A stretch of 46,458 nt of DNA, from the IMG/VR virus record IMGVR_UViG_3300034175_000027; one strand, 5' to 3'. The position numbers and the translations under genes are program-made. Below are positions 128 through 43,530 of this stretch, piece by piece. This DNA comes from a virus. Each line of letters starts with the position of its first letter. Position 1 is the first letter of the stretch. The notes under the pieces were generated by a model. That model did no database searches, had not been told where the DNA came from, and was given only the letters and a program-made list of their open reading frames with translations.

Positions 128-2019
128 GTGTCAACAGTCAAGTCGAGACCGCCCCACAAGCCAACAATCAAGTCATTGAAGTTGCCGAAAAACACGTCAT
201 TGCCAGCGATCTGATTGGTAACCTCAGTGCGGTAGCCGTTGATAGTGTTGCCAGCTTCCCAGATGATCGCCTCAGTGCCAGTGCCGAAACGAGTGGTCGT
301 TTTTGCGTTACCGCGAGTCAACGCATTCACTACATACGCCATGCTGTTCACGTCAGCGTTGTCAGCTGCGATCTTGCTTTCCATCTCGACATATTCGGCA
401 TAAGTCGGGTATGCGCCGCCCAATGTCACTGCGTTAATGCCGTTGTAATTCTTCAAGCCTTTAGGCTGATTGGCAGTGCCAGAGCCGTAGTAACCAGCGA
501 GGTCAATCGCTTGCGCAATCGCGTTCAACAGGTCACGGCGCACGATACCCTCGGCATCAGGCGTTGACTGCATCATCAAGCGGCGCGTGATATCCACGTA
601 CGCTGCAACAGTCTTAGGCGAGAGAGCCAATTGCCCGATGGTTGGAGTGCCTTCGGTCGCGTCATCACCCTCGCCAATCCAGTAGGCAGTAGCGCCACCA
701 GTTTGCTTAGGCACTTCAACGTTGCCAACCAGGCCGCCCATTGTGTTGGCGAGCTTCATAATCGTGGTGCGGTTGCGCAGCATCTCAATGAAGCTGCCAG
801 CCATGAAATTGGTATCAACCAAGCCAGAGCCTGTTTGTGCACCAGTCGGGCTGTTAGGTGCGCCACCAGCGTTGAAAGCACGCGCGAGAACGTCCTCAGG
901 AACAAGGATGCCTTTAGCTTCTTTGCCAAGCTGGCGTTGAGCTGCAGAGCTACATTCAAACTCGAACGCAGCAGCCTCGCGATCAGCATTGGTCGCATTC
1001 GGCATCATTGCGCGCACTGCTTTAAACAGTGAGTAGCTGCGAGCCTCAGTATCGGTCAAACCGATGCTTGGATCTTTCGATTCAGACAGCGGCTTGCTGT
1101 CACGCTTGCCGCCACTACCAGAGCCAATGCCGCGAGTGTTCATAAACTCAAGCACTTCACCCTGGAATGACTCGGCAGACTTGCCAGTCTTAACAGCATC
1201 GCGAGCGAGCTGAGGGCAGTTGTATTTGTCACCCATCTCGATGATGGCGGCAGTACGCTTTTGCTCTGCTTCGAGAGCGCGTTGACCAGCTGCTGCGATA
1301 TCGGCGCCAGCCTTTTCAAGCACTTCAAGCACTTGAGTAATTTTACCATCTGCATCAACCATGGCGCGAACCAGGTTGCCAGAGGCATCACGTAGAATTT
1401 TTTCCATTGCTCTGACTTCCTCAGAAATTGAATTTTGGGCGCGTTCGCCACTATTGACGATCGCATTTTGTGGGGTTGTTGCTGGCGCTTCTTCTTGTGG
1501 CTTTTCCAGTGATCTGCCGACACCGACAGTCGGGTCTGCTGGCACGCTCACAAGAGAAATCTCGTAAGGCTCCCAGTCATTGACCAGGTACACATCATCA
1601 TCGCCGCGAGTTTCCTGCAGCTTGATACCGTGCACCATGTAGCCGACAGAAACCTTTGTGACGATGCCGTCTGCAATATCCTGCAGCAGCTGCTCACCAT
1701 CATCGCTCTTGCTAAAGCGCACGACGGCGCGGCCTTTGCGATCTTGGTCAACACGAGCTGTGCCAGGCTCAACAACGCCTCGCATATCGTCCCAGTTATG
1801 ATTCCAAAGCACCGCAGCTTTATCGTTGAGTCTGTCCAGCCGGATGGCACCCGCTGCATGATCTAAAATCTCAAAACCGAACCATCTCCGGTATTCGATT
1901 TCAGAGCTAAATGACAACTCAACCGTGCGGCCTTCTAAATCAACACTACCAACGGTGGCTTCGCGATAGAGCAAGCCCTTTTCGCGTATCTCTATCAGGC
2001 GCTGTGCTAGTTTGTTCAT
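31..2019 (-). CDS. Prohead protease (HK97-type) fused to an HK97-fold major capsid protein
   Basis: 662-aa ORF directly downstream of portal. The N-terminal ~170 aa look like a prohead protease (..VSVGYMVHG.., ..YEISLVSVPADP..). A charged linker or delta-like segment follows, then a ~400-aa capsid-like C-terminus. Confidence 0.8.
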   Translation of the reverse strand: MNKLAQRLIEIREKGLLYREATVGSVDLEGRTVELSFSSEIEYRRWFGFEILDHAAGAIRLDRLNDKAAVLWNHNWDDMRGVVEPGTARVDQDRKGRAVVRFSKSDDGEQLLQDIADGIVTKVSVGYMVHGIKLQETRGDDDVYLVNDWEPYEISLVSVPADPTVGVGRSLEKPQEEAPATTPQNAIVNSGERAQNSISEEVRAMEKILRDASGNLVRAMVDADGKITQVLEVLEKAGADIAAAGQRALEAEQKRTAAIIEMGDKYNCPQLARDAVKTGKSAESFQGEVLEFMNTRGIGSGSGGKRDSKPLSESKDPSIGLTDTEARSYSLFKAVRAMMPNATNADREAAAFEFECSSAAQRQLGKEAKGILVPEDVLARAFNAGGAPNSPTGAQTGSGLVDTNFMAGSFIEMLRNRTTIMKLANTMGGLVGNVEVPKQTGGATAYWIGEGDDATEGTPTIGQLALSPKTVAAYVDITRRLMMQSTPDAEGIVRRDLLNAIAQAIDLAGYYGSGTANQPKGLKNYNGINAVTLGGAYPTYAEYVEMESKIAADNADVNSMAYVVNALTRGNAKTTTRFGTGTEAIIWEAGNTINGYRTEVTNQIAGNDVFFGNFNDLIVGLWGGLDLTVDTSSLSKSGGIRIVAFQDADIVLRREESFTYAT
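1465..1507 (-). promoter_or_regulatory. Predicted late promoter P-late1, internal to the protease-capsid ORF
   Basis: On the minus strand, box GGAAAAGCCACAAGAAG at 1491-1507 (16/17 to consensus), with CAAAAT exactly 20 nt downstream at 1465-1470. An SD (GAGGA) and an in-frame ATG at 1407 follow. Confidence 0.45.
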
Positions 2020-3626
2020 TGTGGCGCCTCTCTTGGGCTTAGTTCTGGCTTAGGAACCGGTCTGCCCATGGTGAGCAAAACGAATTCGGTCGCCGTTTTT
2101 TCGTCGATGCCTTCGTTGACGTAGGTGTCGATCATCGCGCGCACATCGCGGGCGGTCTCCAACCATACGGTTTGAGGGTCTTTCCCTTGCTCACGAATGA
2201 TCGTGCTAGGGCTGGTTAAACCGTTGTTTTTCGAATTCACCGCAGCGTCGACGTCAGCACGCGGGTCAATCCACTGCCAGCGACGTGGCTGCCAGCTAAC
2301 GTTTTTGTAGCGGTCAAGGCGCTCAGCTTTGAGCGGGCGCCCTTTGACCATCAGCTTGCCCATGAGCAGCGCGCGAGGCAGCCACCCTTGTGCAAACACC
2401 CGGCTGATCAGCGTTTCGATCAACCACTCTTGTAATTCTTTCCAGTGTTCACGGCTGTCGAGCGTGCCCTGCCTGATGCTTGAGAAATTCACACCCTCGA
2501 GGTCTGCGGCCAGCTCGTTATAAGGAACGCCGAAACCGGCTGCCATGCTGCGCAGAGCTTGCTTGATAAACGGCGCATATTCGCCATTGGGGTACTGCGG
2601 TGACGTCTCTTTGATTTCAGCTCCCTCTGGCAAAACGATCAGCTCGCCAGGTTCGCTATCAATTATCAATTCCTCGCCGTCATCCATTTCCGGGCCATAG
2701 CCGTCTTTCCACTGAATGACGCCAAGCTTGTTCGCCCCTACGCGAGCATTGACGATCGCGGCGTTTTCCATCGCGTTCATCTGGCGCATGCGAAACAGGC
2801 TGGTAGCAGTCCAGGGTAAGCCGCGCTTTTGCCCGGTCATATCCTCGAGAAAACCGTGAATGATATCCTCGGCTGGCACCTCGATGTACTTTTTACCTCC
2901 ATGCGTGTAGGTGGCTTCTGTCTCATCAGTGGTGCTGAAAAAATAGCCCAACGGGCGCCCGTAACGGTTAAACCGGATGCCCTGGCGAATGAAATTGCCG
3001 CCAGTGGTGGTGCGCTCATTCATGTCGATCGGGCAACGCTGTGCGTCGATCACCTGCAGCGAAAACTGCCACGGTCCAGCCTCTTTGCCGTAAATCATGC
3101 GCACGATAAATTCGCCATCTTTGGCGGCACTGACTACGCAGGTTGATTGAATTTGGCGAAACGATCGGCGCCCGGTGACGTCGCAATTTTGCGGCATGCA
3201 CCACTCAGCCCAACCAGTTTCAATGGCTTCATTGGCCAGCTTGTCGAGCTTGCCTTTTTCGTCTTTGCTTTGAGCCTGCAGGGTTACGCCTTGCGGGCCG
3301 ACAATATTTTGACGGCACATGCGCAGAAACGCCTTGCCGTAATCGTTGTTTGCACACTGCTCGCGCGAGCGGGCAACGATGGTGCGTTGGTTACGATCGA
3401 CAACCTCGTCAGCGGTGAGCGGTGAGCTACCCCAGCCCTGCGAAAGTCGATCCTGCTGAGCAGCAGCAAACATGCGTGCAGAGCTACGGCTGCGCATGTG
3501 ATTGGCGCGCGATTTCTCAGGCTGCTCTGGCGCTGTAGCAATAGCAACGCCGTTCTGGCGCACAATTGGAACGCCAGAACGGGCAAACGCTGTTTTGTCT
3601 CTCTGCGCAAGTTCCCACGAGTTCAT
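2016..3626 (-). CDS. Portal protein (lambda gpB-like family)
   Basis: 536-aa ORF between terminase and protease-capsid. Its N-terminal region is lambda-portal-like (..QGWGSSPLTADE..ARSREQCANNDY..). It overlaps its neighbours by 4 nt (translational coupling). Confidence 0.85.
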   Translation of the reverse strand: MNSWELAQRDKTAFARSGVPIVRQNGVAIATAPEQPEKSRANHMRSRSSARMFAAAQQDRLSQGWGSSPLTADEVVDRNQRTIVARSREQCANNDYGKAFLRMCRQNIVGPQGVTLQAQSKDEKGKLDKLANEAIETGWAEWCMPQNCDVTGRRSFRQIQSTCVVSAAKDGEFIVRMIYGKEAGPWQFSLQVIDAQRCPIDMNERTTTGGNFIRQGIRFNRYGRPLGYFFSTTDETEATYTHGGKKYIEVPAEDIIHGFLEDMTGQKRGLPWTATSLFRMRQMNAMENAAIVNARVGANKLGVIQWKDGYGPEMDDGEELIIDSEPGELIVLPEGAEIKETSPQYPNGEYAPFIKQALRSMAAGFGVPYNELAADLEGVNFSSIRQGTLDSREHWKELQEWLIETLISRVFAQGWLPRALLMGKLMVKGRPLKAERLDRYKNVSWQPRRWQWIDPRADVDAAVNSKNNGLTSPSTIIREQGKDPQTVWLETARDVRAMIDTYVNEGIDEKTATEFVLLTMGRPVPKPELSPREAPQ

Positions 3627-4162
3627 TATTGTAGTCTCACGCGCACAACTGCGCCGAATGGGTTTCTGCCGCAGGCGGTGCCTTTCTCGTTGCGAACCTG
3701 CCGCCGATATTCATTGCGCAACAAAATCAGGTCACTGATCGGTGTGCGGAATAACTCGCGGTTGTTAATGCGGTAGCGCTCTTGATCCAGTGTCGCGCGC
3801 TTGGCGATCACAGCCTCGATTGCCTCGAGTGCGATCTCAGCCGTTGTGCGACCGTCATAAACGCCAGTTTGCGCAGCTAGATCGGGTGTGATTTCGATCT
3901 GGCCAGTTTCATATTCTTCTGTGGTGGTGCCATCAGTGACGCGCAGCGAGTACCAGTAGTTGCCCGGTGTCCAGTCAGCAGTGACGGCAGCGGTGACCAG
4001 TATGCGATGTTGCGTACCCTCAGCTACGGCTGTGAGATCGATGGCCGCAGGTCCGCGCAACAGCAGTGTCACGGTCCATTCAGGAGCGGGATAAGCTGTT
4101 AGCGTCAGCAACCGGCTGAAAGTCAGCCCGGCGCCGGTTTTTTCAGGAATTTTGCAGCTCAC
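3626..4162 (-). CDS. gpW-like head-tail joining protein with an extra N-terminal domain
   Basis: It occupies the lambda gpW position (between gpA-like terminase and portal). The C-terminal ~70 aa (..EAIEAVIAKRATLDQERYRINNRELFRTPISDLILLRNEYRRQV..) have gpW-like character. The GTG start overlaps the terminase stop (GTGA). Confidence 0.5.
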   Translation of the reverse strand: MSCKIPEKTGAGLTFSRLLTLTAYPAPEWTVTLLLRGPAAIDLTAVAEGTQHRILVTAAVTADWTPGNYWYSLRVTDGTTTEEYETGQIEITPDLAAQTGVYDGRTTAEIALEAIEAVIAKRATLDQERYRINNRELFRTPISDLILLRNEYRRQVRNEKGTACGRNPFGAVVRVRLQ

Positions 4163-6165
4163 CAGTTATTTGCCCACCCTTTGCCGCGCTTGGCGCTCAC
4201 AGATTTCGAGCGCTTAATAGTGGGCTTAGTCTGTGCGGGCGCCGCTTTTGGTTCCTCTTGTGGCTTTTCCTCGCGCTTTTTGGGCTTTGGAATTGGCCTA
4301 GGAAGCTCGTTTTCGGGTGCGATTTCGGGTGTTTTTGGGGGTAAATTGTCGTTTGCAGGGGTGCTGTAGCGCTCTGCGAGGCGTTTTAGTGGGGGTTGCA
4401 TGATCTTTAGGGCAGCGGTGGCGTAGACCCTGCAATCTAGAGCCTCGTTTCTAACCTTGTCGCCTTTGGTCCATTCCCGCACAGGAAAACCCTTGACGTA
4501 ACGAGTGACCAGTTTCTCAGACGTCAGCTGCTTGAAATATTCACCGTCACGATCGTGAGGGAAATGACAGTAGCCCGGTCCTGGTCTCGCATTATTCAAG
4601 CGGCGCATGACGATGAGTTTTGTCTCGTCAACACCAACTAGAAACAGGTCGATTTTTCTAGCGTTTTTGCCAGACTGCTTACGTTGTGGTTTCTCAACGA
4701 TCGCACGCCCCCAGCCCGCAACGCCTTTAATGCCGAATAACCTGCGCCCTGTCTTGCCTCGCGCATACTCGTATGCGGCTTGGGTGTAACCGTTGGTGCC
4801 GCCAGTATCCAAACAGGCAGCGCTGATGGGTAGAACGGCACCACTTTCGTGCTGGAATGTTTGCGCAAGGTAGTCATCAAGGTCGTTCCACACCTCGCCA
4901 GCGAGAGGATCGCCGTATAAAATTGTGTAATCGATCGACCAACTTTCCTCACCAACACCCCACGCAACGGTTTCCACCTCGAGGCGGTCCTGCTGAGCAT
5001 CAATGCCGGCTGTTAGGTACACCCCACCCATCGGCACATCAGCGCGGTATTCCTCGCGGCGCCCCATAAGGCTATCAGGGTCAACCTTGTCGCCTTTTTC
5101 CTCCCATGTCTTGGCCAGGCTGACATTGGTGAATGTCTGCAGGTCGTCGGTCGCCAGCTTGTCGAGATAGTCGCGAACGATCGCGGGTATTTTGCGAAAG
5201 GTGCTGTAAAGCTCATTCAGGTGGTAGCTGGCATGCCCATCGAAAGGCTTTTCAGCTACCCAGTGGCCAGCTCGGATTGCTGCCACGCGTTGGCCTTCAT
5301 CCCACTGACTGCCGCAGTGCATACAGTAGTAGCGCGCAGTGTCAGCCTTTTGCTCGGTGAGCGCGGCGGCTGTGTCCTCATCAGTCTCTCGCCTGCCATC
5401 CCATCGCACATTTTCCCAGTCGAGTTTATCGTGCACATGGCAGTGCGGGCACTCGACGTGAAAGTGCCGCTGGTCACCCATCTCAAACGCTTTTTCGATG
5501 TATGAATCATCACGGATCGTTGGCGTTGAAATTTCCAGCAGGAAGCGCTGGTCACCGAACGTGGCAGAGCGCTGCCAGAGCAACCCAACAGGGTGGCCTT
5601 CTGCCGTTCTACTGTAAGAATCAACTTCATCACAAACGATAAGCGGCGCCGATCGGCCACGCATTGTCTTAGGGCTGCCGCTGTAGGCCATCATCAAAAA
5701 CCCGCCGGGGAAACTCTTCATATTTTGGTTGTTAACACCTTCGCGGCCTCGCGGCTTCGACATTAGCCTCCGCACAGGCTCGCACTCATCAACGAGCGGG
5801 TTGAACTTACTTTCTAGCCATGTGCGCACATCATCCTGCGATGGCTGCATCATCATCTGTGAGCGAGGCGACATGGCGATGCAGTAAGCCTGTACGCATA
5901 AAGCCAAAAGCGTCTTGCCAACCTGGGCCGACCACATCAGAGAAACGCGGTAGCAATCAGGGTTTACCAGCTGATTCATTGGCTCGATTTGATATGGTGC
6001 GTTGGCGAAACGCAGCCTGCCAGGAATAGCATTTCCGGCTGGTATCTTGATGAAATTAGATGCCCATTCTGATGGGGTCATATCAGGTGGTGGCTTTAGC
6101 TGCTCAGCTCCCGCTTTGATTGCTGCGGCCACCCCAAGCGGGTTTTTGAAATCTTCTATTTTCAT
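4159..6165 (-). CDS. Terminase large subunit (lambda GpA family)
   Basis: 668-aa ORF with a GpA-like N-terminus (..SEWASNFIKIPAGNAIPGRLRFANAPYQIEPMN..MWSAQVGKT..). Acidic motif LIVCDEVD. Lys/Pro/Glu-rich C-terminal tail. Confidence 0.88.
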   Translation of the reverse strand: MKIEDFKNPLGVAAAIKAGAEQLKPPPDMTPSEWASNFIKIPAGNAIPGRLRFANAPYQIEPMNQLVNPDCYRVSLMWSAQVGKTLLALCVQAYCIAMSPRSQMMMQPSQDDVRTWLESKFNPLVDECEPVRRLMSKPRGREGVNNQNMKSFPGGFLMMAYSGSPKTMRGRSAPLIVCDEVDSYSRTAEGHPVGLLWQRSATFGDQRFLLEISTPTIRDDSYIEKAFEMGDQRHFHVECPHCHVHDKLDWENVRWDGRRETDEDTAAALTEQKADTARYYCMHCGSQWDEGQRVAAIRAGHWVAEKPFDGHASYHLNELYSTFRKIPAIVRDYLDKLATDDLQTFTNVSLAKTWEEKGDKVDPDSLMGRREEYRADVPMGGVYLTAGIDAQQDRLEVETVAWGVGEESWSIDYTILYGDPLAGEVWNDLDDYLAQTFQHESGAVLPISAACLDTGGTNGYTQAAYEYARGKTGRRLFGIKGVAGWGRAIVEKPQRKQSGKNARKIDLFLVGVDETKLIVMRRLNNARPGPGYCHFPHDRDGEYFKQLTSEKLVTRYVKGFPVREWTKGDKVRNEALDCRVYATAALKIMQPPLKRLAERYSTPANDNLPPKTPEIAPENELPRPIPKPKKREEKPQEEPKAAPAQTKPTIKRSKSVSAKRGKGWANNW
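4228..4270 (-). promoter_or_regulatory. Predicted late promoter P-late2, inside the terminase 3' end
   Basis: Minus-strand box GGAAAAGCCACAAGAGG at 4254-4270, with CAGACT 20 nt downstream at 4228-4233. It lies upstream of the gpW-like/portal/capsid genes. Confidence 0.45.
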
Positions 6166-6944
6166 ACCGCTATCAGCCTGTTTGATTTTCTAAGATTGTC
6201 GTTGGCCGGTATAACCTGCAGGTTCCACGGCACGTGCAGCCCGCAAACAGTTGCACCCCTAAGCGGAATAATGTGGTCAACGTGATGCTTGATGCCAGTT
6301 TCGTTAAATAATTTATTGGATAGCTGATAGTAAGCTCTTATCTCCAGCCAATGGTTTTCAGTTAGCCACTTAGGAGTAGCAAGCAGCTTTCTTGCTCTGC
6401 GGGCACCCCAACGCTCTGTCAGTCTATCGGGGCGGGCTTTCCACCAATTTCTGTTATAAGAGTTGACCCTCTCCCTATTTTTATCTGTCCACTTGATTAC
6501 TGAGAGCCTGTGCTTAGCTTTATTCTGGCTGTACCATTTCCGCTTATGCAGGTTGCAGGCTTCTCGGTTTTGTTTAGAGTAAAGAGAGCTTTTCGCGATC
6601 ATTTCGTCGCGATTGGCCTTGTAATACGCCTTCATTTGAGCGAGTTTTTTATCTCTGTTTTTTTCGTGATAGGCCGAATTTCTCTCGCGGATGCGCTCGG
6701 CATTCCGCTTGTAATATTCAGGAGCATGAGATTGCTGGTAGGCTTTGACTTTCTCGGGGTTTAACTTTCTATACTGCTGAGCAGCTGCAACTTTGTCGTT
6801 GAGGCATTGATCGCACAAACACCCTCTGCCATTCACTCTGCGCTCAGCAAGATTGCCGTATTTGCAAGGCGTGCCGCCAAAGTATGTTTTTTGCCCTTTT
6901 GCAATAGCCTCGTTTCGGGTAATGATCTGCATAACTTCGCTCAA
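6162..6944 (-). CDS. HNH endonuclease (terminase-associated)
   Basis: C-terminal HNH motif (..HHVDHIIPLRGATVCGLHVPWNLQVIPANDNLRKSN). The N-terminus is Cys-rich and is followed by about 8 degenerate Y-x-K-x-N-R/P-E repeats. The gene sits between the small and large terminase genes and is visibly AT-richer than its neighbours. Confidence 0.8.
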   Translation of the reverse strand: MSEVMQIITRNEAIAKGQKTYFGGTPCKYGNLAERRVNGRGCLCDQCLNDKVAAAQQYRKLNPEKVKAYQQSHAPEYYKRNAERIRERNSAYHEKNRDKKLAQMKAYYKANRDEMIAKSSLYSKQNREACNLHKRKWYSQNKAKHRLSVIKWTDKNRERVNSYNRNWWKARPDRLTERWGARRARKLLATPKWLTENHWLEIRAYYQLSNKLFNETGIKHHVDHIIPLRGATVCGLHVPWNLQVIPANDNLRKSNRLIAV

Positions 6945-8365: not shown

Positions 8366-8850
8366 TGCGCCCCTATGCATTGAGCATGAACGCGCTTGCG
8401 ATCGGTCCACAGCCCTGCGCAACGCTTGTTGCCAGGTGTGGAGCAGTCATAGCCAGCGGCGTATTTGAATAACAGGATGGCATCACATGCGCCGCGATAG
8501 TCGCCAGTGTTTAGGCGCTTGACGATCGTTGAGCTGCAGAACGCTGATGAGCCGATGTTGTATGACAGATCGACATACACATCATACTCAGCCTGATTGA
8601 GTGGAGCGGTTACGCAGCGCTTGAGTGCGCCCTCATATTTCGCGGTGTCGGTGAGTGCACGTTGCACCGCCCTGACAGGTGTGGTGACGTCACCCATCTT
8701 GACACCCTCAGTAGTGCCAAACCCGACAGTAGGCACATCGCCCTCAGTCGGTATCACGGCACCAGTGGTGTAGCCTTCACGCGTGAGTATGCCCACAAAT
8801 GCGGCTGCGCTGAGCGATAGCGCTGCAACGACCATACGAGCGCGGCTCAT
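8362..8850 (-). CDS. SAR endolysin (T4-lysozyme/GH24-like, phage 21 R type)
   Basis: The ATG at 8850 overlaps the holin stop. The N-terminal helix is weakly hydrophobic and Gly/Ala-rich (MSRARMVVAALSLSAAAFVGIL). The catalytic region reads ..REGY..PTEGDVPTVGFGTT.., and the C-terminus resembles P21 R (..RLNTGDYRGACDAILLF..). Confidence 0.8.
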   Translation of the reverse strand: MSRARMVVAALSLSAAAFVGILTREGYTTGAVIPTEGDVPTVGFGTTEGVKMGDVTTPVRAVQRALTDTAKYEGALKRCVTAPLNQAEYDVYVDLSYNIGSSAFCSSTIVKRLNTGDYRGACDAILLFKYAAGYDCSTPGNKRCAGLWTDRKRVHAQCIGAQ

Positions 8851-9095
8851 TAGAGCTTGCCCTCGAGTATCTTGGCCATGCGAGCCTGATGCTCTGCCTC
8901 TTGGCGATAATCCTCGCGGCGCCTGAAATACCAATTTAATGCTAGGCCAATGATCCCCAGCACAATGCCGATGATTACACCTGCCTCGCTTGATGCCCAC
9001 CAACCTAGAACGCTGGTGCCAGCCCCTGTGTAAGTGGCTTTTGATCCAACTGCCGCGAGTGTCGCGTCAAGGGTGGTTTGTTTCACTTCATTCAT
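8850..9095 (-). CDS. Holin (pinholin-like, two TMDs)
   Basis: 81 aa, immediately upstream of the SAR endolysin. TMD1 is weakly hydrophobic (..GAGTSVLGWWASS..), TMD2 is strong (GVIIGIVLGIIGLALNWYF), and the C-terminus is charged. Confidence 0.6.
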   Translation of the reverse strand: MNEVKQTTLDATLAAVGSKATYTGAGTSVLGWWASSEAGVIIGIVLGIIGLALNWYFRRREDYRQEAEHQARMAKILEGKL

Positions 9096-9544
9096 GATAC
9101 TGCCCGGAGTGCATTGGTATTTTGCGCATTGTTGTCATTGGCAGCCGTCATGGCCTCTTGTGGCTTTTCCCTCATCAGGTTTCGAACGGTGCGCTCGCAC
9201 ACATTCATGATCTCAGCGACGTACTTTGGCGGCAGCCCATCAGCCAGCATGCGAACGATCGAGCGATCACGAAACGCTCTATACAATTCCATGCATGTGC
9301 CAGGCTTGAGGATTTCCCCACCGAACACGTCGACCAATTTCATGGCGTCATGCCAGCCGAGTATTTTTACCAGTGGGTGGTTTGGCTTGAGAGATTTCGG
9401 CACGTACATGATGACGTGTGCCGAGTGTGAGTTTGGTTTTCTCGAATCTTTCGCATAACACCGCGGCAGTTGCCCAACCAAGTATAACGCCCGTTCATCC
9501 CCGATCACATCGGCTATTTCGCGAACACTTGTAGGTAACCGCAT
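9092..9544 (-). CDS. Mor-family transcriptional activator (candidate late-gene activator)
   Basis: The C-terminal part (..FGGEILKPGTCMELYRAFRDRSIVRMLADGLPPKYVAEIMNVCERTVRNLMRE..) matches the Mor/C-type pattern (GG..P, RDR.I, HTH). I chose the ATG at 9544 because of the GGTGG SD. Upstream in-frame starts at 9562 and 9628 are possible. Confidence 0.55.
   Translation of the reverse strand: MRLPTSVREIADVIGDERALYLVGQLPRCYAKDSRKPNSHSAHVIMYVPKSLKPNHPLVKILGWHDAMKLVDVFGGEILKPGTCMELYRAFRDRSIVRMLADGLPPKYVAEIMNVCERTVRNLMREKPQEAMTAANDNNAQNTNALRAVS
9128..9170 (-). promoter_or_regulatory. Predicted late promoter P-late3, inside the mor-like 3' end and upstream of the lysis cassette
   Basis: Minus-strand box GGAAAAGCCACAAGAGG at 9154-9170, with AACAAT 20 nt downstream at 9128-9133. 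The holin ATG is at 9095. Confidence 0.45.
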
Positions 9545-9633
9545 ATAACCACCAGTAATCATAAGTAATATGTGGTTAGTATAGCGCCAGTTGTGCCCAT
9601 AAGCAAAGAAAAGCTGCGCCCAAGGCACACCAC

Positions 9634-9882
9634 TTGGGCACAGAACACCCCCATTGATTTATAAGGAGTTTTTGGCTGTTTTGGTCAAAATCTGTACTGT
9701 TTGTGCCCAATGCCTGATGCTGCGCCTAAAAAGGTACGACCGTTAGATCACTGCGCATCATCGTCTGTATAAAGGCATTTAACGGTTGTATATTTCTTTT
9801 CAGACATGGAAACATAGAAACAGTGCACAGCCCAGTGTTTATAAGGGGTTAGCTGTGCCCAACTGTTTCTGACTTGGGCACA
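9634..9882. promoter_or_regulatory. Regulatory region upstream of the mor-like gene, with four TTGGGCACA sites and two TTTATAAGGRGTT boxes
   Basis: TTGGGCACA occurs at 9634-9642 and 9874-9882 (plus orientation) and at 9702-9710 and 9854-9862 (inverted). TTTATAAGG(A/G)GTT occurs at 9658-9670 and 9838-9850. A minus-strand sigma70-like promoter (TTGACC at 9683-9688, 18-nt spacer, TTATAA at 9659-9664) sits between one inverted pair. Confidence 0.45.
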
Positions 9883-9884
9883 AA

Positions 9885-9907
9885 TAAAAAACCGCCACTT
9901 GGGCGGT
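9885..9907 (-). terminator. Rho-independent terminator (minus strand)
   Basis: Minus strand reads ACCGCC-caagt-GGCGGT followed by TTTTTTAT. It overlaps the stop codon of the 110-aa ORF. Confidence 0.7.
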
Positions 9908-13304: not shown

Positions 13305-13330
13305 AATAAAAACCCGCTATTACAGCGGGC
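13305..13330 (-). terminator. Rho-independent terminator overlapping the primase stop codon
   Basis: Minus strand reads CCCGCT-gtaat-AGCGGG followed by TTTTTAT. Confidence 0.65.
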
Positions 13331-15584
13331 CACCATGCTGAGGTACATCGTAATATTTGCCGTCACGCGCCTTTTTAGGCTCCCCGCCTGTTAGTTTGCG
13401 CAGTATCTTGGCAACCTCGGTGGTGTGTTTCCTGTCGAGCTTGTTGTTCATGCCGATATCAATCAGCACGTCAGTGGCATTCATAGGCTTGCATGCCGCC
13501 GCACCCACCTGCCCCCACGGGTAACGCTTCAAAATCAATTCCTCGATCGGGTCGACTGCCTCATGCTCACGGTTTAGCAGCTCGAGACTAGCTTCCTCGT
13601 GGCGCTCTAACCACCAATGCTCACCAGCCCTGAATAGCGTTGCCACCTCAGCCCACAGCTGCTGCACGTCGATTTTATGCAGGTAGTCAACACCGATAAC
13701 AGGGATAGTCCACCAGCGCACGTTGCCAGTGTCATCAGACAGGAAATTGCGAGGGTTTACGCTTGCAAAAAACACCGTGCGGCGCTGGTATCGTGACTCG
13801 AGCCGATCGTATGGCTTTCGCAGCATATCCACCTTGCTGCTGACAAACGCTTTGAGCTTGGCCATATCCGCTTTGCGAAATGTGCCATCTAACTCGCCTA
13901 GCTCCACAATCCAGTGGCTGATGGCTGAGCTGATGGTGTCTTTGTTTGACGGGTCGATACTGGCGCCCTCTTTGACCAGCTCTTGCCGATCGTAAGGCAG
14001 CAGTGATTTGATCCAGGCAGATTTGCCGAGTGACTGCTCACCTTGCAGCACCAACACACCCTTTGACCAAAAACCACTGGGGGTGAGCGCTGCAGCTACT
14101 GCCGATATCAGCCAGCGGCGCACCAGCAGCTCGAGCAACCCGCGATTAAACCCGCGCTCAGTCTGCAGGGTGTCGTACAGAGCTGACAGCCGGCTGTAGC
14201 CATCCCACGGGCGCGAGGTGATGAATTCGGCAACCGGGTTGAATTGGTTTTTGTTGGCGATGTATTTGAGGTAGTCAGGGGTATCGGCCTTGGGCATGCG
14301 GTTACGAGCACACAGGCTGTTGATTTCAGCCAGCGCACAGGCTGCAGCTGAGTCATCGCCATAATGCTGGCCAGGCACATCGATGATCACGTCTTTGGAT
14401 ATGACATTGTAGCGAACGCCTATGCCGTATTGATCCAGCATCCATTTCAGGTTTTCGTGCGTGTTGAGCGGCTGCATTTTGTCGCTCAGGTGCGGGAATT
14501 CAAACGGGCCAACGTTGCTGGATAGATCGAGGTGGTTATCGTTATCCGCTGATGGTATCGCCGCCTGCAGCTGCGTGCGCACCGCCTCGATGCCCTCGAG
14601 CTGGTGCAGGTCGTTGAAATCGGTTGGCTTGGTTTCGAGGTTGACGAATTTCGGCACCACCATGATGGCGCCTGCTGAGCTGGCAGCCTGGCGTGCGTAA
14701 TTTACCCCGTCATTGCCGTGGTTTTTGTGGTAGCGGTCATCATCAGCGGCAACGAGGATAGTGGCAGCGCCAAACGATTGACGCAGATCACGCGCGACTG
14801 TCGGAATATTGCCAGCGTCGAATGCTACAGCCACGTACCAGCCGGTTGCCTGATGGATCGTGGCGCCGGTTGAGTACCCTTCACATATGACGATGCGCGG
14901 CATGTTGCCTGATGGCTTGCCGCCAATCATGTGGAAGCCGCCACGTTTCTGGCCACCCGGCATGTAATCGCGATCGCGCCCTAGCTCGGGTGCATCGTTG
15001 GTGAAATACGCCTGCAGGCTCATCAAATGGCCATCGATATTGCGGATAGGCACCAGCAACGCCTCAGCGCCAGTGCGCCACTTGCCCACCTTGAGGCCAT
15101 ACGCCTGCACGCCTTTGCGTTTCAGGTAAGGGTGATCATCACCGCCAACGTCATTGGCCGCGAGCCATAGGTCTGTAGCTTTGGCTGCTGCCTCGGCACG
15201 TTTGCGGGTGCGCTCTGCCTCTGCCTCAGCTTCCTCGGCTTTGCGCTTGGCAATCCGCTCATCAATCTGCTGCTGCGTCAGCGGCTCGGCTTTATTCGGG
15301 TCACGGTTCCAGCCGCAGCGTTTGGCCTCACCAATGAGTGTGCCGATCGTGATTTTACCGCCAGCCCTGGCTGACTTCCACGTATCGCGAGCGTCTTTGA
15401 AATTGTATTTGTCGCTGGTTTTCGACCAGTTGTCCCATACAGAGAAACCAGCCTCTCCAAGCTCTGACTTAACGGCGCACGCCATCTGAAACCAGGTGTC
15501 GCGGTCGCAGCCTGAGTCACAGTGTCTTAGCGCCTCAGCGATTTCGTCAGTGGTTAGGTCTTGGTATGAACTCAGTGCGCTCAT
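13320..15584 (-). CDS. Primase/helicase-like replication protein (PriCT-2-like N-terminus, Toprim domain, VirE/P4-alpha-like NTPase)
   Basis: ..CDRDTWFQMACAVKSELG..FSVWDNWS.. is PriCT-2-like. ..IVICEGYSTGATI..ILVAADDD.. is Toprim. The Walker A motif GEQSLGKS lies in a VirE-like C-terminal half. Confidence 0.8.
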   Translation of the reverse strand: MSALSSYQDLTTDEIAEALRHCDSGCDRDTWFQMACAVKSELGEAGFSVWDNWSKTSDKYNFKDARDTWKSARAGGKITIGTLIGEAKRCGWNRDPNKAEPLTQQQIDERIAKRKAEEAEAEAERTRKRAEAAAKATDLWLAANDVGGDDHPYLKRKGVQAYGLKVGKWRTGAEALLVPIRNIDGHLMSLQAYFTNDAPELGRDRDYMPGGQKRGGFHMIGGKPSGNMPRIVICEGYSTGATIHQATGWYVAVAFDAGNIPTVARDLRQSFGAATILVAADDDRYHKNHGNDGVNYARQAASSAGAIMVVPKFVNLETKPTDFNDLHQLEGIEAVRTQLQAAIPSADNDNHLDLSSNVGPFEFPHLSDKMQPLNTHENLKWMLDQYGIGVRYNVISKDVIIDVPGQHYGDDSAAACALAEINSLCARNRMPKADTPDYLKYIANKNQFNPVAEFITSRPWDGYSRLSALYDTLQTERGFNRGLLELLVRRWLISAVAAALTPSGFWSKGVLVLQGEQSLGKSAWIKSLLPYDRQELVKEGASIDPSNKDTISSAISHWIVELGELDGTFRKADMAKLKAFVSSKVDMLRKPYDRLESRYQRRTVFFASVNPRNFLSDDTGNVRWWTIPVIGVDYLHKIDVQQLWAEVATLFRAGEHWWLERHEEASLELLNREHEAVDPIEELILKRYPWGQVGAAACKPMNATDVLIDIGMNNKLDRKHTTEVAKILRKLTGGEPKKARDGKYYDVPQHGGPL

Positions 15585-16629: not shown

Positions 16630-16659
16630 ATTATACGCAGGCGTGTTGATTATAGTAAA
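16630..16659 (-). promoter_or_regulatory. Putative sigma70-type promoter
   Basis: Minus strand has TTTACT (16654-16659), an 18-nt spacer, and TATAAT (16630-16635), in the 244-bp gap upstream of the 71-aa ORF. A second TATAAT lies at 16649-16654. Confidence 0.4.
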
Positions 16660-17237: not shown

Positions 17238-17512
17238 GCCCCACCTCTCATTAGCCAATCTTGCTCGCCAGGTCCGATCGGATGCTCTCGACACCAAACC
17301 CCACCACCCGCCCGATGCGGAAACCAATAGCCATCGCACAGGCACTTGGTGCGCTTGTGCTCGATCCGTTTTCTGTACCAATCCACCCGATACTCACCGC
17401 CGCAGTGACACCTGCCGTAACACGCTCGCACGTACTCATCAGGGTGCTTTGCGAGTGTTTTACGTGCGTTGCATTTTTTGCAGCGGCAGGGGTAGTGGGC
17501 GGTGTATTTCAT
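17234..17512 (-). CDS. Cys/His-rich (zinc-binding) small protein
   Basis: 92 aa with CRCKKC..CYGRCHC..CLC..C spacing, coupled to both neighbours. Confidence 0.5.
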   Translation of the reverse strand: MKYTAHYPCRCKKCNARKTLAKHPDEYVRACYGRCHCGGEYRVDWYRKRIEHKRTKCLCDGYWFPHRAGGGVWCREHPIGPGEQDWLMRGGA

Positions 17513-18081
17513 TATGACTGCTCAGGCTCGGCAGGCGCTTTATCTGGCGTAGCCACAGCTGGTGATGCCTTGATGATTTTACGCAGGATTGGGCGCCATA
17601 CTTTCCACCAGCTGGCAGCGCTGCTATCCATGCGTTTGATTTCATCATCACCAAATGCCCACCACTCTTTGAGCGTGTGACGCTGGCAGCCAATCTGCAT
17701 ATGCGTGGCGGTGTATGTGACAGTCCAGCCATCAGTTTGCACTGACTTGATCTCGCGACTGTTGCCAGTGGTGTTCCATAAAGAGTTTTCACGCAGGTTA
17801 GCGCCACTCAGGTTAGCGCCACGCAGGTAAGCGTCACGCAGGTTAGCGCCACGCAGGTTAGCGCCACGCAGGTTAGCGTCACGCAGGTTAGCGCCACTCA
17901 GGTTAGCGCCACTCAGGTTAGCGCCACTCAGGTTAGCGCCACGCAGGTCAGCGCCACTCAGGTTAGCGCCACTCAGGTTAGCGCCACGCAGGTAAGCGCG
18001 TTCGCCGCCTTCCTCATCTCGACGCCAGCGCCCGTGCTTCTCAATGATTTCTGCCAATTCCACCGCGTTATAAGTTTTCAT
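17512..18081 (-). CDS. Pentapeptide-repeat protein with a distinct C-terminal domain
   Basis: About 14 consecutive (A/D)(N/Y)L(S/R)G pentapeptides ([19 protein letters not shown]...), followed by a ~85-aa Trp-rich domain. Confidence 0.85.
17791..18000. repeat. Fourteen tandem 15-bp units (acKcaggttagcgcc) encoding the pentapeptide repeats
   Basis: Read directly. The units are near-identical at the DNA level, with only a few substitutions. Confidence 0.9.
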
Positions 18082-19762: not shown

Positions 19763-19815
19763 TTGTAAGTAATCGCAAATAATCCATTATAACTGTAGCT
19801 AACCTCGCGTGTATA
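19763..19815. promoter_or_regulatory. Divergent, overlapping promoter pair (candidate genetic switch)
   Basis: Minus strand has TATACA (19810-19815), an 18-nt spacer, and TATAAT (19786-19791), reading towards the helicase. Plus strand has TTGTAA (19763-19768), 18-19 nt, and TTATAA/TATAAC (19787-19793), reading towards the wHTH gene. The two -10 elements overlap. Confidence 0.35.
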
Positions 19816-22945: not shown

Positions 22946-23342
22946 CGGGTATGAAAAACTTGATGATGTTTTGGCGCGAGCGTATCGCCAAGCGTCAGAG
23001 GGCAAGGGAGTGGAGCGCCACGCAGATGGTGAGCCGTTCCATGAGCAGCCAATGCAGATCATCAGCGATTTGGTTGGTGTTGGTTTCTGCATTGGGCAGG
23101 CGATCAAAAAGGCACATGAGTCACAGCGCCTGCCGCACGATCGGGCGGTTGCTGAGTTGCTTGGTTCGATCAACTACCTGGCAGGTGCTGTCATCGCGAT
23201 GGAACGTCGCCACCAAATCAATCTGGATAAGCTCACAAGTCCAGCCAATGACAACAACCAAGTCTGGTGCAAAAACTGCATCGACAAAAGCGATTGCCTG
23301 CGCCGTGAAGGCTGCATAATCGCAGCAGGCGCATTATCGTGA
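22932..23342 (+). CDS. Hypothetical protein, possibly of the MazG-like dATP/dGTP diphosphohydrolase-domain family
   Basis: 136 aa from an internal ATG of the listed 207-aa ORF. ..EGKGVERHADGEPFHEQP..GQAIKKAHES..ELLGSINYLAGAVI.. recalls that family. This is from memory only. Confidence 0.35.
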   Translation: MQQVSGYEKLDDVLARAYRQASEGKGVERHADGEPFHEQPMQIISDLVGVGFCIGQAIKKAHESQRLPHDRAVAELLGSINYLAGAVIAMERRHQINLDKLTSPANDNNQVWCKNCIDKSDCLRREGCIIAAGALS

Positions 23343-23542
23343 CTGACATAATCGACCAAGCTGGCGAGCTTGAGGATAAACAACGCGAACAAGCATTCGA
23401 GGCGCAGCGGCAACGTGCTGCCCTCGAGTTAAAAAATCGGCAAAAACCTCAAGGCTACTGCATCACATGCTTTGAGGATTTCGCCGCAAACGACAATCAA
23501 AAACTGTTCTGCGATGCCAAGTGCGCGCAGGCTCATCGATAA
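23339..23542 (+). CDS. TraR/DksA-like C4 zinc-finger protein
   Basis: 67 aa with a coiled N-terminus, then C..C-x14-C...C. GTG start overlapping the upstream stop. Confidence 0.4.
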   Translation: MTDIIDQAGELEDKQREQAFEAQRQRAALELKNRQKPQGYCITCFEDFAANDNQKLFCDAKCAQAHR

Positions 23543-24052: not shown

Positions 24053-24076
24053 ACCCGCCTCGCAGCGGGTTTTTCT
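24053..24076. terminator. Terminator between convergent genes (strong on plus, weaker on minus)
   Basis: ACCCGC-ctcgca-GCGGGT followed by TTTTTC on the plus strand. It lies between the ssb stop and the stop of the 99-aa minus-strand ORF. Confidence 0.7.
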
Positions 24077-24375
24077 TACCGGTAAAACCGCACAAGCTTG
24101 GTGCCAGCGGATACGCCAGACAGTACGATTTTCGAGATGCCATAGCCGCTATCAAGCTTGATAGCGTTACCCGATCCAGCTGGTGCCGTCACAACTTTCG
24201 AGCCGCCTACGCTGTTATAAACGGTTATCGTGACGGTGGTGAAATCCAGCGTATCTGAATCGATGTTGATCGAATGAAGGTTAGACTTGTTCATGTCATC
24301 ACAGGTGAGCGTGTCGCCCGTACCTGTGCTAACCCACGATTTTTCTTTACCCATGAATGCGATTGTATCTGCCAC
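24076..24375 (-). CDS. Hypothetical beta-rich protein, third gene of the late cassette
   Basis: 99 aa. Its GTG start is 1 nt after the upstream stop. Confidence 0.5.
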   Translation of the reverse strand: MADTIAFMGKEKSWVSTGTGDTLTCDDMNKSNLHSINIDSDTLDFTTVTITVYNSVGGSKVVTAPAGSGNAIKLDSGYGISKIVLSGVSAGTKLVRFYR

Positions 24376-36456: not shown

Positions 36457-37890
36457 TTAAAAAATCTCCGTCAAGTAGTTGTCAGTCAGGTGACTGCGGA
36501 AAATAACGTGTTCAGACGGATACACAGGCGTGAAATCGAAATCGAAATACACTTTGCCCAGTGCAATCTGATCAGGCGTATTGAGGTCAGGATCGGCCCA
36601 ACATTCGCCGCCAAGAATAGCACCGATTGTCACCAAATGCCGCAAATAGTTATTCACGCCCTCGGTTACATCAGCGATGTATTGCTTGGTGATGCCGCGA
36701 TCGACTGCCCATAAGTGAGCGCGCAGCAAGCTGTCATTGATAATGTCAGCAGAGCGCACCACGCACAAGAATGCCCACTTAGGATCGGCAGACAGTGTGC
36801 GATTGCCCCACAGGCGGTAGCCGTTCTGGCGAATGATCGTGGTGACCTTGCTCTCGTTGAGCAGGTTAGCGCGCGAATTGGCATCACCTAACGTGAAATC
36901 GATCGGGCGCGCAGTGCCCTGAATGCCGTTGATATTCTGGTTAGATGGCGACCACCAGAAACCGCGCTCGTTGTCTGACTTGGCGATGAGGCCAGCCACG
37001 CACGGTGAGGCGTAAGTCGTGAACAGCGCACCATCCTCATCGGTTTTGAAAACCTGAGGGTCAACCACAAACACGCGCTTGCTGCCAAAGTCGCCAGCGT
37101 AAGCGATTGCGTCAGAGTCAATCGTGTTAGGTCCGTCAGCGATGATCACAGCGCGCAAACGCTCTGCAATGCCAATCAGCTCAGCCACAACAGCGTTGCC
37201 GACTGTGCCGCGAGTGATGGTGAATGTTGCTGTGGTGGTGCCAGTGCCAGCGGTGCCAGCTGCCAGCGTCACAGTTGGGTTGGTAGTGTAGCCAGAGCCG
37301 TGATCGGTTAGCGTCACAGTCGTAACAATGCCACCCGCAACAACAGCCGTACCAGCTGCGCCAGTACCGCCGCCGCCAGTGAATGTGAGTGCGTGGGTGC
37401 CGTTAGTGTAGCCGGCGCCTGCGTTGTTTTTTGCAATCGTCAGGATGCCGTTAGCTACGCGCTCGTGCGTGAAGCCAGGCGCCAACAGAATGCGCGGCTG
37501 GAAACCGACAATCGACTCAGCACCAAGGAATGCGTGCACGCCTTCGTAATTGCCAGTCGTTGAATTCACACCGCCAAGAATGTTGGCCAGCGTTTCGGCT
37601 GGTGTAGCCTCTTCCTCAACGCGCACAACGATAACCACTGCGCCTGCCTGGTCGAAAATCGAATCCATTGCAGTCGGCAGGGTGCCCTCACCATCGCCAA
37701 CCGTATCGAGCAGAGCAGCCTCGCGGCGGCTACCGGCGATCAGCACAGGCGTGTTGAGCGGGAATGCATCGGGGTCTGCGTCTGGCGCAGTACCAATCAA
37801 ACCGATAACGCTTGAGCGTACGGTGGAAATCGGGCGGGGGCCGTCATCAATCTCTAAGACCTCGACACCATGTAAAAAAGTTTCAGCCAT
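36457..37890 (-). CDS. Tail sheath protein (P2 FI-like)
   Basis: 477 aa. MAETFLHGVEVLEIDDGPRPISTVRSSVIGLIGTAP.. is a typical sheath N-terminus. Confidence 0.88.
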   Translation of the reverse strand: MAETFLHGVEVLEIDDGPRPISTVRSSVIGLIGTAPDADPDAFPLNTPVLIAGSRREAALLDTVGDGEGTLPTAMDSIFDQAGAVVIVVRVEEEATPAETLANILGGVNSTTGNYEGVHAFLGAESIVGFQPRILLAPGFTHERVANGILTIAKNNAGAGYTNGTHALTFTGGGGTGAAGTAVVAGGIVTTVTLTDHGSGYTTNPTVTLAAGTAGTGTTTATFTITRGTVGNAVVAELIGIAERLRAVIIADGPNTIDSDAIAYAGDFGSKRVFVVDPQVFKTDEDGALFTTYASPCVAGLIAKSDNERGFWWSPSNQNINGIQGTARPIDFTLGDANSRANLLNESKVTTIIRQNGYRLWGNRTLSADPKWAFLCVVRSADIINDSLLRAHLWAVDRGITKQYIADVTEGVNNYLRHLVTIGAILGGECWADPDLNTPDQIALGKVYFDFDFTPVYPSEHVIFRSHLTDNYLTEIF

Positions 37891-37929: not shown

Positions 37930-37972
37930 ATGGTCGCAACTCGCCGTCTGTTGTTCCTCTTGTGGCTTTTCC
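37930..37972 (-). promoter_or_regulatory. Predicted late promoter P-late5 (sheath/tube operon)
   Basis: Minus-strand box GGAAAAGCCACAAGAGG (37956-37972), with GACCAT 20 nt downstream (37930-37935). It lies immediately after a terminator, and GAGGA plus ATG at 37890 follow. Confidence 0.5.
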
Positions 37973-37975
37973 GCA

Positions 37976-38000
37976 TAAAAAAGCCCCGCCGAAGCGAGGC
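37976..38000 (-). terminator. Rho-independent terminator (TTCG tetraloop)
   Basis: Minus strand reads GCCTCGC-TTCG-GCGGGGC (one G:U pair) followed by TTTTTTAT. Confidence 0.7.
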
Positions 38001-43142: not shown

Positions 43143-43489
43143 TAGGTCACCACTATTCCGTCAAGTTTGATTTTTTGGCCGTCTGGCAGGTACTCGCCTG
43201 TCATGTCCAGCTCGAGAATGCCCGGTGACGCGGCGATCGCTTGCACGCTGGTGAGCTTGAAACGCGGCTCCCACTTGTCGAGCGCTTCTGCCACAGCGGC
43301 ATAGACGTCCAACAAGGTTGAGCGATTCATAGGTGCATCGATCAACTGAAACAGTCGGCAGCCGTATTCGCGGCGCATAACTCGCGTGCCGATCGGGGTA
43401 GTGAGAATGTCGCGAATGCTCTGCCGCAAGTGATCAATGCCGCTAAGCCGCTTTCCAGTAGATGCATTTATGCCGTTCATGGCAGGCAT
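43142..43489 (-). CDS. Baseplate protein W (GPW/gp25 family)
   Basis: ..GIDHLRQSIRDILTTPIGTRVMRREYGCRLFQLIDAP.. is the canonical gp25/GPW motif. The start may instead be the second ATG at 43479. Confidence 0.85.
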   Translation of the reverse strand: MPAMNGINASTGKRLSGIDHLRQSIRDILTTPIGTRVMRREYGCRLFQLIDAPMNRSTLLDVYAAVAEALDKWEPRFKLTSVQAIAASPGILELDMTGEYLPDGQKIKLDGIVVT

Positions 43490-43530
43490 TCTGGGGGCGG
43501 TGCGGCTGGCCTTCCTCTTGTGGCTTTTCC
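43487..43530 (-). promoter_or_regulatory. Predicted late promoter P-late6 (baseplate/fibre operon)
   Basis: Minus-strand box GGAAAAGCCACAAGAGG (43514-43530) directly after the gpV stop. CAGAAT lies 21 nt downstream (43487-43492) and overlaps the first ATG of gpW. Confidence 0.4.

Follow-up and report, generated by a model that had tools for sequence, protein, structure and literature searches.

The Pm promoter and the late promoters, four in all (Plys, PI, PP, Pmom), of phage Mu carry a -10 element without a -35 element and are bound by Mor or C (PMC2582627, PMC4390567). The bound element is an imperfect dyad of 16 bp centred at -43.5, which lies within a stretch of 19 bp (-52 to -34) that Plys needs (PMC2582627, PMC4390567), and a preprint describes tetrameric binding, with contacts to the C-terminal domain of alpha (alpha-CTD), sigma region 4 and the beta flap (10.1101/2025.05.02.651988). 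Here, we analysed a stretch of viral DNA of 46,458 nt (IMG/VR virus record IMGVR_UViG_3300034175_000027; the whole stretch is hereafter called the window), which carries six copies of a 17-nt box, GGAAAAGCCACAAGAGG, each followed at a fixed distance by a weak -10-like hexamer. An earlier note on this DNA had proposed these copies as a late promoter set dependent on a Mor-family activator. The late-promoter part of this proposal gained strong support from the synteny of box, spacer and hexamer in six relatives and in IMG/VR contigs, and we estimate at about 75 % the probability that the six boxes are the binding elements of a Mor-related activator at sigma-70 late promoters that lack a -35 element.

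According to this reading, the sigma-70 RNA polymerase of the host would read the weak -10 hexamer, nAnA(A/C)T, located exactly 20 bp downstream of the box, while the box itself (17-19 bp, approximately -49 to -31) would be bound by the product of the gene at 9092-9544 and would replace the missing -35 element. Like Mu Mor and C, the activator would recruit or stabilise the polymerase. Its production would turn on five conserved late units: the lysis and terminase genes; the genes for head-tail joining and the portal; an internal transcript that encodes a scaffold-capsid product without the protease; baseplate W/J/I and the fibre; and the sheath, the tube and the rest of the tail. In the window phage, an extra cassette that has acquired a box would also be switched on. 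Binding by the activator, transcription starts about 7 nt past the hexamers and activator-dependent expression are predicted here from sequence features.

The predicted promoters resemble those of Mu in having a -10 element without a functional -35 element and, with the box as the putative counterpart, an activator element of 16-19 bp that would overlap the -35 region. The two systems also share a small phage activator, with a C-terminal helix-turn-helix (HTH) motif after a Gly-rich beta linker, and would share the co-activation of dispersed late promoters. They differ in other respects. If the hexamer is placed at -12 to -7, the centre of the box is at approximately -40/-41, about 3 bp off the -43.5 of Mu; one activator is found here, whereas Mu uses a Mor-to-C cascade; and the N-terminal half of the activator is not detectably similar to its Mu counterparts. 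Unlike Mu, the window phage is an integrase-type temperate myovirus, and three of its five conserved promoters lie inside open reading frames (ORFs). The window phage is not a Mu-like transposable one: its head module is of the lambda type and its tail of the P2 type, and it carries an integrase and a primase but no transposase. The proposed mechanism is of a kind known from Mu; it would be extended to a whole phage group and overturns nothing.

Two other phage systems bear comparison. The late operons of P2, 186 and P4 depend on an activator (Ogr, B or Delta) and have poor -35 regions, and the tail genes served by the predicted promoters of the window (W, J, I, fibre, sheath FI, tube FII, U, X and D) are of the P2 type. 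Promoters of the P2 Ogr/Delta type were rejected as candidates: the pattern TGT-N12-ACA, which such promoters have near -55, gave 11 matches in the window compared with 12.9 expected, and none upstream of the boxes. An Ogr-type activator was not recognised, and the only zinc-finger ORF (23339-23542) matched phrog_54 and is DksA-like. At the middle promoters of T4, an asymmetric MotA box, used together with AsiA in sigma appropriation, replaces the -35 element at a fixed distance to the -10 element. The window box is likewise asymmetric and would stand in place of a -35 element, whereas it is longer than the MotA box and lies further upstream; the likeness is one of mechanistic analogy only.

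In agreement with the earlier statement that the box was not known as a late-promoter consensus, no description of this motif or of the transcription programme of the phage group was found in the searchable literature, which did not cover the genome paper of PPpW-3 (PMC4292507). The phages of the group are described as poorly characterised in the BASEL paper (PMC11990801).

Box, spacer and hexamer in the window and in related phages

The four exact copies of the box lie on the minus strand at 4254-4270, 9154-9170, 37956-37972 and 43514-43530, and two copies with one mismatch, GGAAAAGCCACAAGAAG and TGAAAAGCCACAAGAGG, lie on the same strand at 1491-1507 and 26891-26907, respectively. All six were re-found where the earlier note had placed them and in the single orientation that it had reported. 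With up to three mismatches allowed, the window gave seven matches, compared with 0.16 expected, and 0 of 100 shuffled sequences reached seven. When the flanks were read again, the hexamers behind the six boxes were CAAAAT, CAGACT, AACAAT, CACACT, GACCAT and CAGAAT (pattern NANNNT), with the invariant A at the second position (A2) and T at the sixth (T6) that had been noted before. Exactly 20 nt separate the box from the hexamer at each of the six sites. This also holds at the gpW site (aaggccagccgcaccgcccc followed by CAGAAT), for which the 21 nt given earlier was a miscount. The pattern NANNNT occurs at 5.4 % of minus-strand positions, and its presence at one shared offset at six of six sites corresponds to p ~2e-8, or p ~3e-7 when 11 offsets are allowed for.

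At the -35 position, the sequence reads AGGAAC, which matches TTGACA at two of six bases and upholds the previous statement that a -35 hexamer is missing; a sigma-70 two-hexamer scan called none of the six late promoters. Sigma-70-like pairs of hexamers matched best in the window at 19786-19815 and 16630-16659 (minus strand; TATACA-18-TATAAT and TTTACT-18-TATAAT), in the divergent early region and ahead of the early operon. These two sites are candidate early promoters, in contrast to the late promoters without a -35 element.

As reported previously, two intergenic boxes directly follow intrinsic terminators with a TTCG loop (38000-37983 and 26938-26923, minus strand), and the three copies inside ORFs encode EKPQE in the same frame, within the tails of TerL and of the activator and within the linker of the protease-capsid protein. 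At the intergenic sites, the terminator is directly upstream of the box, and a Shine-Dalgarno (SD) sequence and a start codon follow 20-60 nt downstream. The distance from the box to the start codon ranges from 26 to approximately 100 nt.

We checked six relatives in detail, namely the complete genomes of PPpW-3, Persinger, Mano, ECO1230-10 and FoX1 and the partial contig L154. The copies of Mano and FoX1 were located by reading the syntenic junctions; k-mer counting missed them in these GC-rich genomes. Related phages had been proposed earlier as the place to look for the box at syntenic positions, and each of the five complete relatives indeed carries its own box variant exactly five times, on the coding strand only and at five shared positions. 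Two of these are 3' gene ends, that of the activator gene (the holin gene follows) and that of terL (the head-tail-joining and portal genes follow); a third lies within the protease-capsid gene; and the last two fall in the gpV-gpW gap and in the gap from the fibre module to the sheath gene. The box reads GGCAAACCCACAAGAGG in PPpW-3, GGAAATCCCACAAGAGG in Persinger, GGAAAA(T/G/C)CCGCAAGAGG in Mano, TGACAAACCCCAAGAAG in ECO1230-10 and GGAAATTCCGGACATGG in FoX1, and GGAAATCCCACAAGAGG was also found at the activator site of a contig whose activator is 84 % identical to that of the window. In the five complete genomes and L154, a hexamer with A2 and T6 follows at exactly 20 nt in 27 of 28 copies and at 21 nt in the remaining one.

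A profile of 34 sites from seven genomes showed two conserved blocks, box positions 1-19 (of which only positions 7 and 10 are free, and G2, A5, C9, A12 and G17 are invariant) and the hexamer, in which A2 is kept at 33, A4 at 26 and T6 at 33 of the 34 sites. The spacer between the blocks is non-conserved, GC-rich and T-poor. A weak seventh copy in the window, CGAAAAGCTGCAAGAGG (29539-29555, minus strand; three mismatches), located inside ORF 29339-29839, breaks C9, which is invariant in 34/34 sites, has a C at position 1 that was seen nowhere else, and is followed at 20 nt by AAAATC, without T6. Judged by these departures, this copy is probably a chance or decayed one and not functional.

Next to these genomes, the degenerate pattern GGAAANNCCNCAAGAGGAA identified 142 sites in IMG/VR, 85 of which have A2 and T6 at offset 20, compared with 0-17 at neighbouring offsets. 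A further A2/T6 peak at offset 31 (39 sites) probably reflects conserved terL coding sequence downstream of the terL-site hexamer. A second IMG/VR set, anchored on the activator, consisted of 80 loci, in which 30 activator tails could be parsed; the embedded box is followed by an A2/T6 hexamer at 20 nt in all 30. Of 17 loci that extend at least 9 kb downstream, 15 contain at least two additional same-strand copies, while the opposite strand has none, and the hexamer geometry is kept in all 37 further same-strand copies. The box is shared between phages without detectable DNA similarity elsewhere, and its variant tracks the phage lineage and not the host. These results, with box and hexamer both conserved at a fixed spacing, indicate a promoter signature with two recognition elements and rule out chance and a purely peptide-level motif.

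Exact 16/17-mer scans of 185,579 species genomes and IMG/VR returned only single matches among the matches listed, and the loci checked from these scans had no similarity to the window. Because the box varies between genomes, exact-match scans are uninformative for relatives. A distant member, L321 (IMGVR_UViG_3300046463_000397), has a markedly different box, (A/G)C(G/C)TATCTCGCAGGAGG, and a different recognition helix, SASQVRL, but keeps 20 nt between the box and its hexamer (GACAAT or GAAAAT); it would be a useful outgroup for specificity.

The activator and its probable link to the box

The gene at 9092-9544 (minus strand) encodes a Mor-like late transcriptional activator of 150 aa, which starts with MRLPTSV at 9544. 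Its product matches phrog_836 ('late transcriptional activator') with an E of 2e-25 and has 161 homologues, including the PPpW-3 and Persinger proteins. Mu Mor and Mu C, which have their own family (phrog_532), match phrog_836 at 1e-10 and 2e-11, via their C-terminal halves, and hhalign of Mor against the activator family aligned the Gly-rich (GG) linker and the HTH (E 0.019). Since this homology is limited to the C-terminal half, the activator is best called a member of a sister family (phrog_836) of Mor/C (phrog_532). In the AlphaFold2 (AF2) model (predicted local distance difference test, pLDDT, 83.7), residues 1-125 fold into N-terminal helices, a beta hairpin and, at the C-terminal end of this core, the HTH; residues 126-150, with pLDDT below 50, are modelled as a disordered tail. 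In every complete relative examined, the activator gene directly precedes the first late unit. Pfam scans of 35 ORFs, a set from which several late ORFs were missing, detected no domain of a sigma factor or an RNA polymerase above threshold, and all ORFs longer than 500 aa could be assigned (primase, tape measure, fibre, TerL, capsid and portal).

The link between the box and the activator was judged by co-variation on the 80 activator-anchored loci (the pattern-scan loci gave 5 usable pairs only). From one genome to another, the 5' half of the box varies in step with the second helix of the activator HTH: GGAAA is paired with S(E/D)RxV(R/K)N, GCAGA with SRETVNA, GAAGA with TEQHVRF, GGCAA with SVTGVRA and (T/G)GACA with SERTVKRH. 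The terL and capsid copies carry the same variant as the embedded copy in the same genomes. The copies are near-identical within a genome and differ between genomes, which indicates concerted evolution with a trans-acting factor.

Past the HTH, nearly all of the 39-42 aligned activator tails contain E-x-P-Q-E, 3-4 further residues and A-N-D-N; the E-x-P-Q-E segment corresponds to the box and the N-D-N segment to the -10 hexamer. The E-x-P-Q-E peptide is also present in the TerL tail and the protease-capsid linker, and this recurrence of one peptide in linkers or tails of three unrelated proteins is best explained by selection at the DNA level. The terL-site hexamer lies inside a conserved QTKPTIKRS motif, so that DNA and protein pressures are not fully separable at this site. 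We tentatively propose, as possible but less than probable, that phrog_836 activators bind a non-palindromic 19-bp site asymmetrically, substituting for the -35 contact, and that the box code has stamped E-x-P-Q-E ... A-N-D-N on disordered tails or linkers of three unrelated proteins throughout the group.

Several observations weigh against a Mor-related reader of the box. The window activator has no match to Pfam Mor (PF08765) at E 0.01 or better, which is where the earlier Mor-family assignment falls short; 12 of 39 close homologues do match it (best 6e-8). Mor (1RR7) was absent from both the top 50 Foldseek hits and a PDB profile search, and Foldseek matched only the 34-residue HTH of LuxR/GerE/NarL proteins and resolvases. 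The sites were previously likened to those of Mor and C; the overlap with the -35 region fits, whereas the dyad symmetry is missing. By inspection, the box consensus GGAAAwnCCnCAAGAGGAA has no dyad about any centre, while Mu sites are imperfect dyads of two inverted 5-bp repeats, bound by dimers or tetramers; the traces of symmetry are GG..N5..CC and a weak CCnC/GnGG, and FoX1 has GGAAATTCC in an otherwise asymmetric box. In addition, phylogeny confounds the co-variation of box and helix, as does, at the embedded copy, the overlap with activator codons, and the hexamers at the three sites inside ORFs are coding, so that their conservation could be partly due to protein selection.

The gap upstream of the activator gene (9545-9906, minus strand) contains a cluster of TGTGCCCAA / TTGGGCACA copies, four exact and two with one mismatch in approximately 300 bp, in both orientations and several of them as inverted pairs. 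The same gap contains two CCTTATAAA repeats and two terminator-like hairpins (9908-9890 and 9643-9614), and the equivalent gap of ECO1230-10 (28538-28768 of L148) contains GGGACTATC four times. From this arrangement, the gap looks like an operator/promoter region that times activator synthesis.

Other readings of the box

In an alternative that we regard as unlikely, the sites do act as late promoters, yet another factor recognises the box, an early phage protein or a host factor, with the DksA/TraR-like product of 23339-23542 acting on the polymerase. The asymmetry of the box, unlike Mor/C sites, would agree with such a reader, as would the conservation of the DksA-like protein (phrog_54) in relatives and the presence of several small early ORFs without an assigned function. 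DksA/TraR-type proteins, however, bind polymerase and not specific DNA. Moreover, the Mor-like gene is the only recognisable homologue of a late activator and is next to the first late unit, and its recognition helix co-varies with the box. A host factor in particular is unlikely because the box differs within one host genus, Persinger (GGAAATCCC...) and PPpW-3 (GGCAAACCC...) both growing on Pseudomonas, and its sharing by phages without detectable DNA similarity elsewhere also speaks against a host factor.

It is very unlikely that the box acts in RNA, as an antitermination (nut/put-like), processing or translation signal. The box is on the transcribed strand of read-through transcripts and ends in the SD-like AAGAGG, and antitermination is frequent in phage late regions. 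The position of the terminators at the sheath and cassette sites conflicts with this explanation: their boxes lie downstream of a strong terminator, so that a terminated transcript would not contain the box. The fixed distance of 20 nt to the A2/T6 hexamer would be left unexplained, 26 to approximately 100 nt between the box and the start codon is too far for an SD sequence, the 17-mer has no obvious self-complementary stretch on inspection, and the Rfam search was empty.

Less probable again is a DNA site outside transcription (packaging, ParB-type partition, recombination of the Chi-like kind, or uptake) or a host genome-wide repeat. A single orientation is found here in a genome with nearly all genes on one strand, and relatives encode ParB-like proteins, both of which would suit such a site. 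The placement at operon starts with a fixed geometry to a -10 hexamer, and the exactly five syntenic copies per genome in phages of hosts from E. coli to Xanthomonas, argue against it. No ParB-like gene was recognised among the window ORFs scanned, and the exact-match scans of bacterial and viral collections gave only single matches among those listed.

A shared peptide motif or chance, without a function of the DNA, is effectively refuted by the intergenic copies and the synteny across genomes: three copies do encode EKPQE in the same frame, but the three others are intergenic, the peptide falls in linkers or tails of three unrelated proteins (the activator tail being predicted as disordered), the nucleotides and not just the peptide are identical within each genome, and chance is excluded by the seven matches versus 0.16 expected and by the hexamer p of ~2e-8.

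Individual predicted promoters and the phage genome

For the individual promoters, all on the minus strand, the predicted starts assume a hexamer at -12 to -7 and a start about 7 nt past the hexamer. Three noteworthy corollaries would follow from binding of the Mor-related activator at these sites: a promoter inside the capsid gene, a leaderless mRNA for gpW and the capture of a cassette by the regulon.

P_lys (9128-9170) consists of the exact box at 9154-9170 and the hexamer AACAAT at 9128-9133, both inside the last 25 codons of the activator gene, with a predicted start at ~9121 and the holin ATG at 9095. It would serve the holin, endolysin, spanin, terS, HNH and terL genes. P_portal (4228-4270) has the exact box at 4254-4270 in the C-terminal tail of TerL, the hexamer CAGACT at 4228-4233 and a predicted start at ~4221, and would serve the head-tail-joining gene (GTG at 4162), the portal gene and the protease-capsid gene. 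Its syntenic copy was found in PPpW-3, Persinger, Mano, ECO1230-10, FoX1 and L154.

P_capsid-internal (1465-1507) lies in the linker between Peptidase_S78 and the capsid domain, with the box at 1491-1507 (one mismatch), the hexamer CAAAAT at 1465-1470 and a predicted start at ~1458, and is followed by the SD sequence GAGGAAG and an in-frame ATG at 1407 (M205). The in-frame ATG is 51-57 nt past the hexamer in 7/7 genomes, with an SD-like sequence in most of them. The protease-capsid linker is not conserved, and strong conservation restarts just past the internal Met. This promoter predicts a separate scaffold-capsid product without the protease, besides the full-length one, the ratio of which could be set by transcription. 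In lambda C/Nu3, a nested product is made by an internal translation start on the same mRNA. Both systems would have a shorter, in-frame scaffold-capsid product without the protease inside a longer head gene, whereas the shorter product of the window appears to have its own promoter, SD sequence and ATG.

P_W (43488-43530) has its exact box (43514-43530) abutting the gpV stop codon, the hexamer CAGAAT at 43488-43493 and a predicted start at 43480-43481, and would serve W, J and I together with the genes for the fibre and for fibre assembly. The first ATG of gpW overlaps the hexamer, and the second ATG (43480) is 7 nt past it. The arrangement hexamer-N6/7-ATG is kept in PPpW-3, Persinger, Mano, ECO1230-10 and FoX1 (six genera including the window) and in nine IMG/VR contigs, in which the ATG opens the gpW N-terminus M(D/N)G...HLRQS. 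In the annotation of Mano, gpW is the sole late gene of that stretch without a ribosome-binding site. As the predicted P_W start is the A of the second gpW ATG, the gpW mRNA is probably leaderless. The same hexamer-ATG arrangement was observed at a second, unrelated gene (MDNLIAHLFLARELAH...) in the contigs L179, L183 and L230.

P_sheath (37930-38000) comprises the terminator at 38000-37983 with its T-run, the exact box at 37956-37972 and the hexamer GACCAT at 37930-37935, with a predicted start at ~37923. This hexamer is preceded by TGC (TGC-GACCAT), an extended -10 element, in four of six genomes, and the terminator-box-hexamer layout is kept in PPpW-3, Persinger, Mano and ECO1230-10. The genes served would be the sheath gene (36457-37890; ATG at 37890), the tube and tape measure genes and U/X/D.

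P_cassette (26865-26938) has the terminator at 26938-26923, the box TGAAAAGCCACAAGAGG at 26891-26907, the hexamer CACACT at 26865-26870 and a predicted start at ~26858. It would serve three ORFs between the integrase gene and the recombination module, 25699-26838 (GTG at 26838; 379 aa), 24377-25699 (440 aa) and 24076-24375 (99 aa). None of the complete relatives examined, with their five boxes each, has this promoter or its three ORFs, and the cassette proteins have no Pfam or PHROG match and almost no database relatives. Only three relatives were found for the 379-aa protein, including a homologue with 46 % identity located just past the baseplate and fibre genes on the contig (L155) of an unrelated E217-like myovirus. 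Given this location beside baseplate and fibre genes, the cassette may encode virion proteins of the fibre type, which may have been recruited to the late regulon by gaining a box.

The resulting map of the late regulon, with five conserved transcription units predicted and six in the window phage, is testable and would apply to a widespread, barely characterised group (Jilinvirus, other Iiscvirinae and relatives) with hosts among Pseudomonas, Achromobacter, Burkholderia, Ralstonia, Xanthomonas and enterobacteria, which includes candidates for phage therapy and biocontrol. The internal promoter could set the protease-to-capsid ratio, the rule box-N20-nAnAAT could improve annotation, and the activator and promoter might be reused as an orthogonal pair. 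The boxes inside ORFs would also be a clean example of regulatory DNA that constrains disordered protein tails.

The first and last 127 nt of the window (1-127 and 46332-46458) are identical, which indicates a circularly assembled (or terminally redundant) genome of ~46.3 kb (~46,331 bp). With circular assembly, the capsid gene at the low-coordinate end continues into the head-completion genes at the high-coordinate end. By its gene content, the window phage is a temperate myovirus that belongs to one group with PPpW-3, ECO1230-10, Persinger, Mano and the FoX phages (Iiscvirinae and relatives). The same architecture was found in Pseudomonas phage PPpW-3, in the E. coli phages ECO1230-10, ep3 and HeidiAbel (Jilinvirus, Iiscvirinae), and in Persinger, Mano, Mica, Arya and the FoX phages. 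When cultured phages were searched with the window by megablast, no close DNA relative turned up, and the relatives surfaced in protein-level searches. On the minus strand, the gene order begins with the early genes, including the primase gene (13320-15584) and a helicase gene, followed by the activator gene (9092-9544), the holin (8850-9095), endolysin and spanin genes, terS, the HNH gene, terL (4159-6165), the head-tail-joining gene (3626-4162), the portal gene and the Peptidase_S78-capsid fusion ORF (31-2019). Across the junction, head/tail completion genes, baseplate V/W/J/I, the fibre gene, the sheath gene, the tube and tape measure genes and U/X/D follow, and then accessory ORFs, the integrase gene (27392-28639) and the three-gene cassette; the recombination module is on the plus strand.

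Between terS and terL, a 260-aa ORF (6162-6944, minus strand) has an HNH-like C-terminus and no Pfam match at E 0.01 or better; its slot is empty in PPpW-3, Persinger and ECO1230-10. Rfam and tRNA scans of the window found nothing. At 30173-30229, a stretch of 49-57 nt is 95-100 % identical to unannotated DNA of unrelated Klebsiella and Pseudomonas phages, ARAGORN detected no complete tRNA there, and relatives have a tRNA at the equivalent place; this stretch is probably a tRNA 3' fragment, i.e. the attP core of the integrase module. Finally, the early gene at 17512-18081 (minus strand) encodes a pentapeptide-repeat protein with A(N/D)LSG / A(N/D)LRG units and is built from about a dozen 15-nt DNA repeats (~17798-17993); its product is possibly a DNA mimic or has an anti-defence role.

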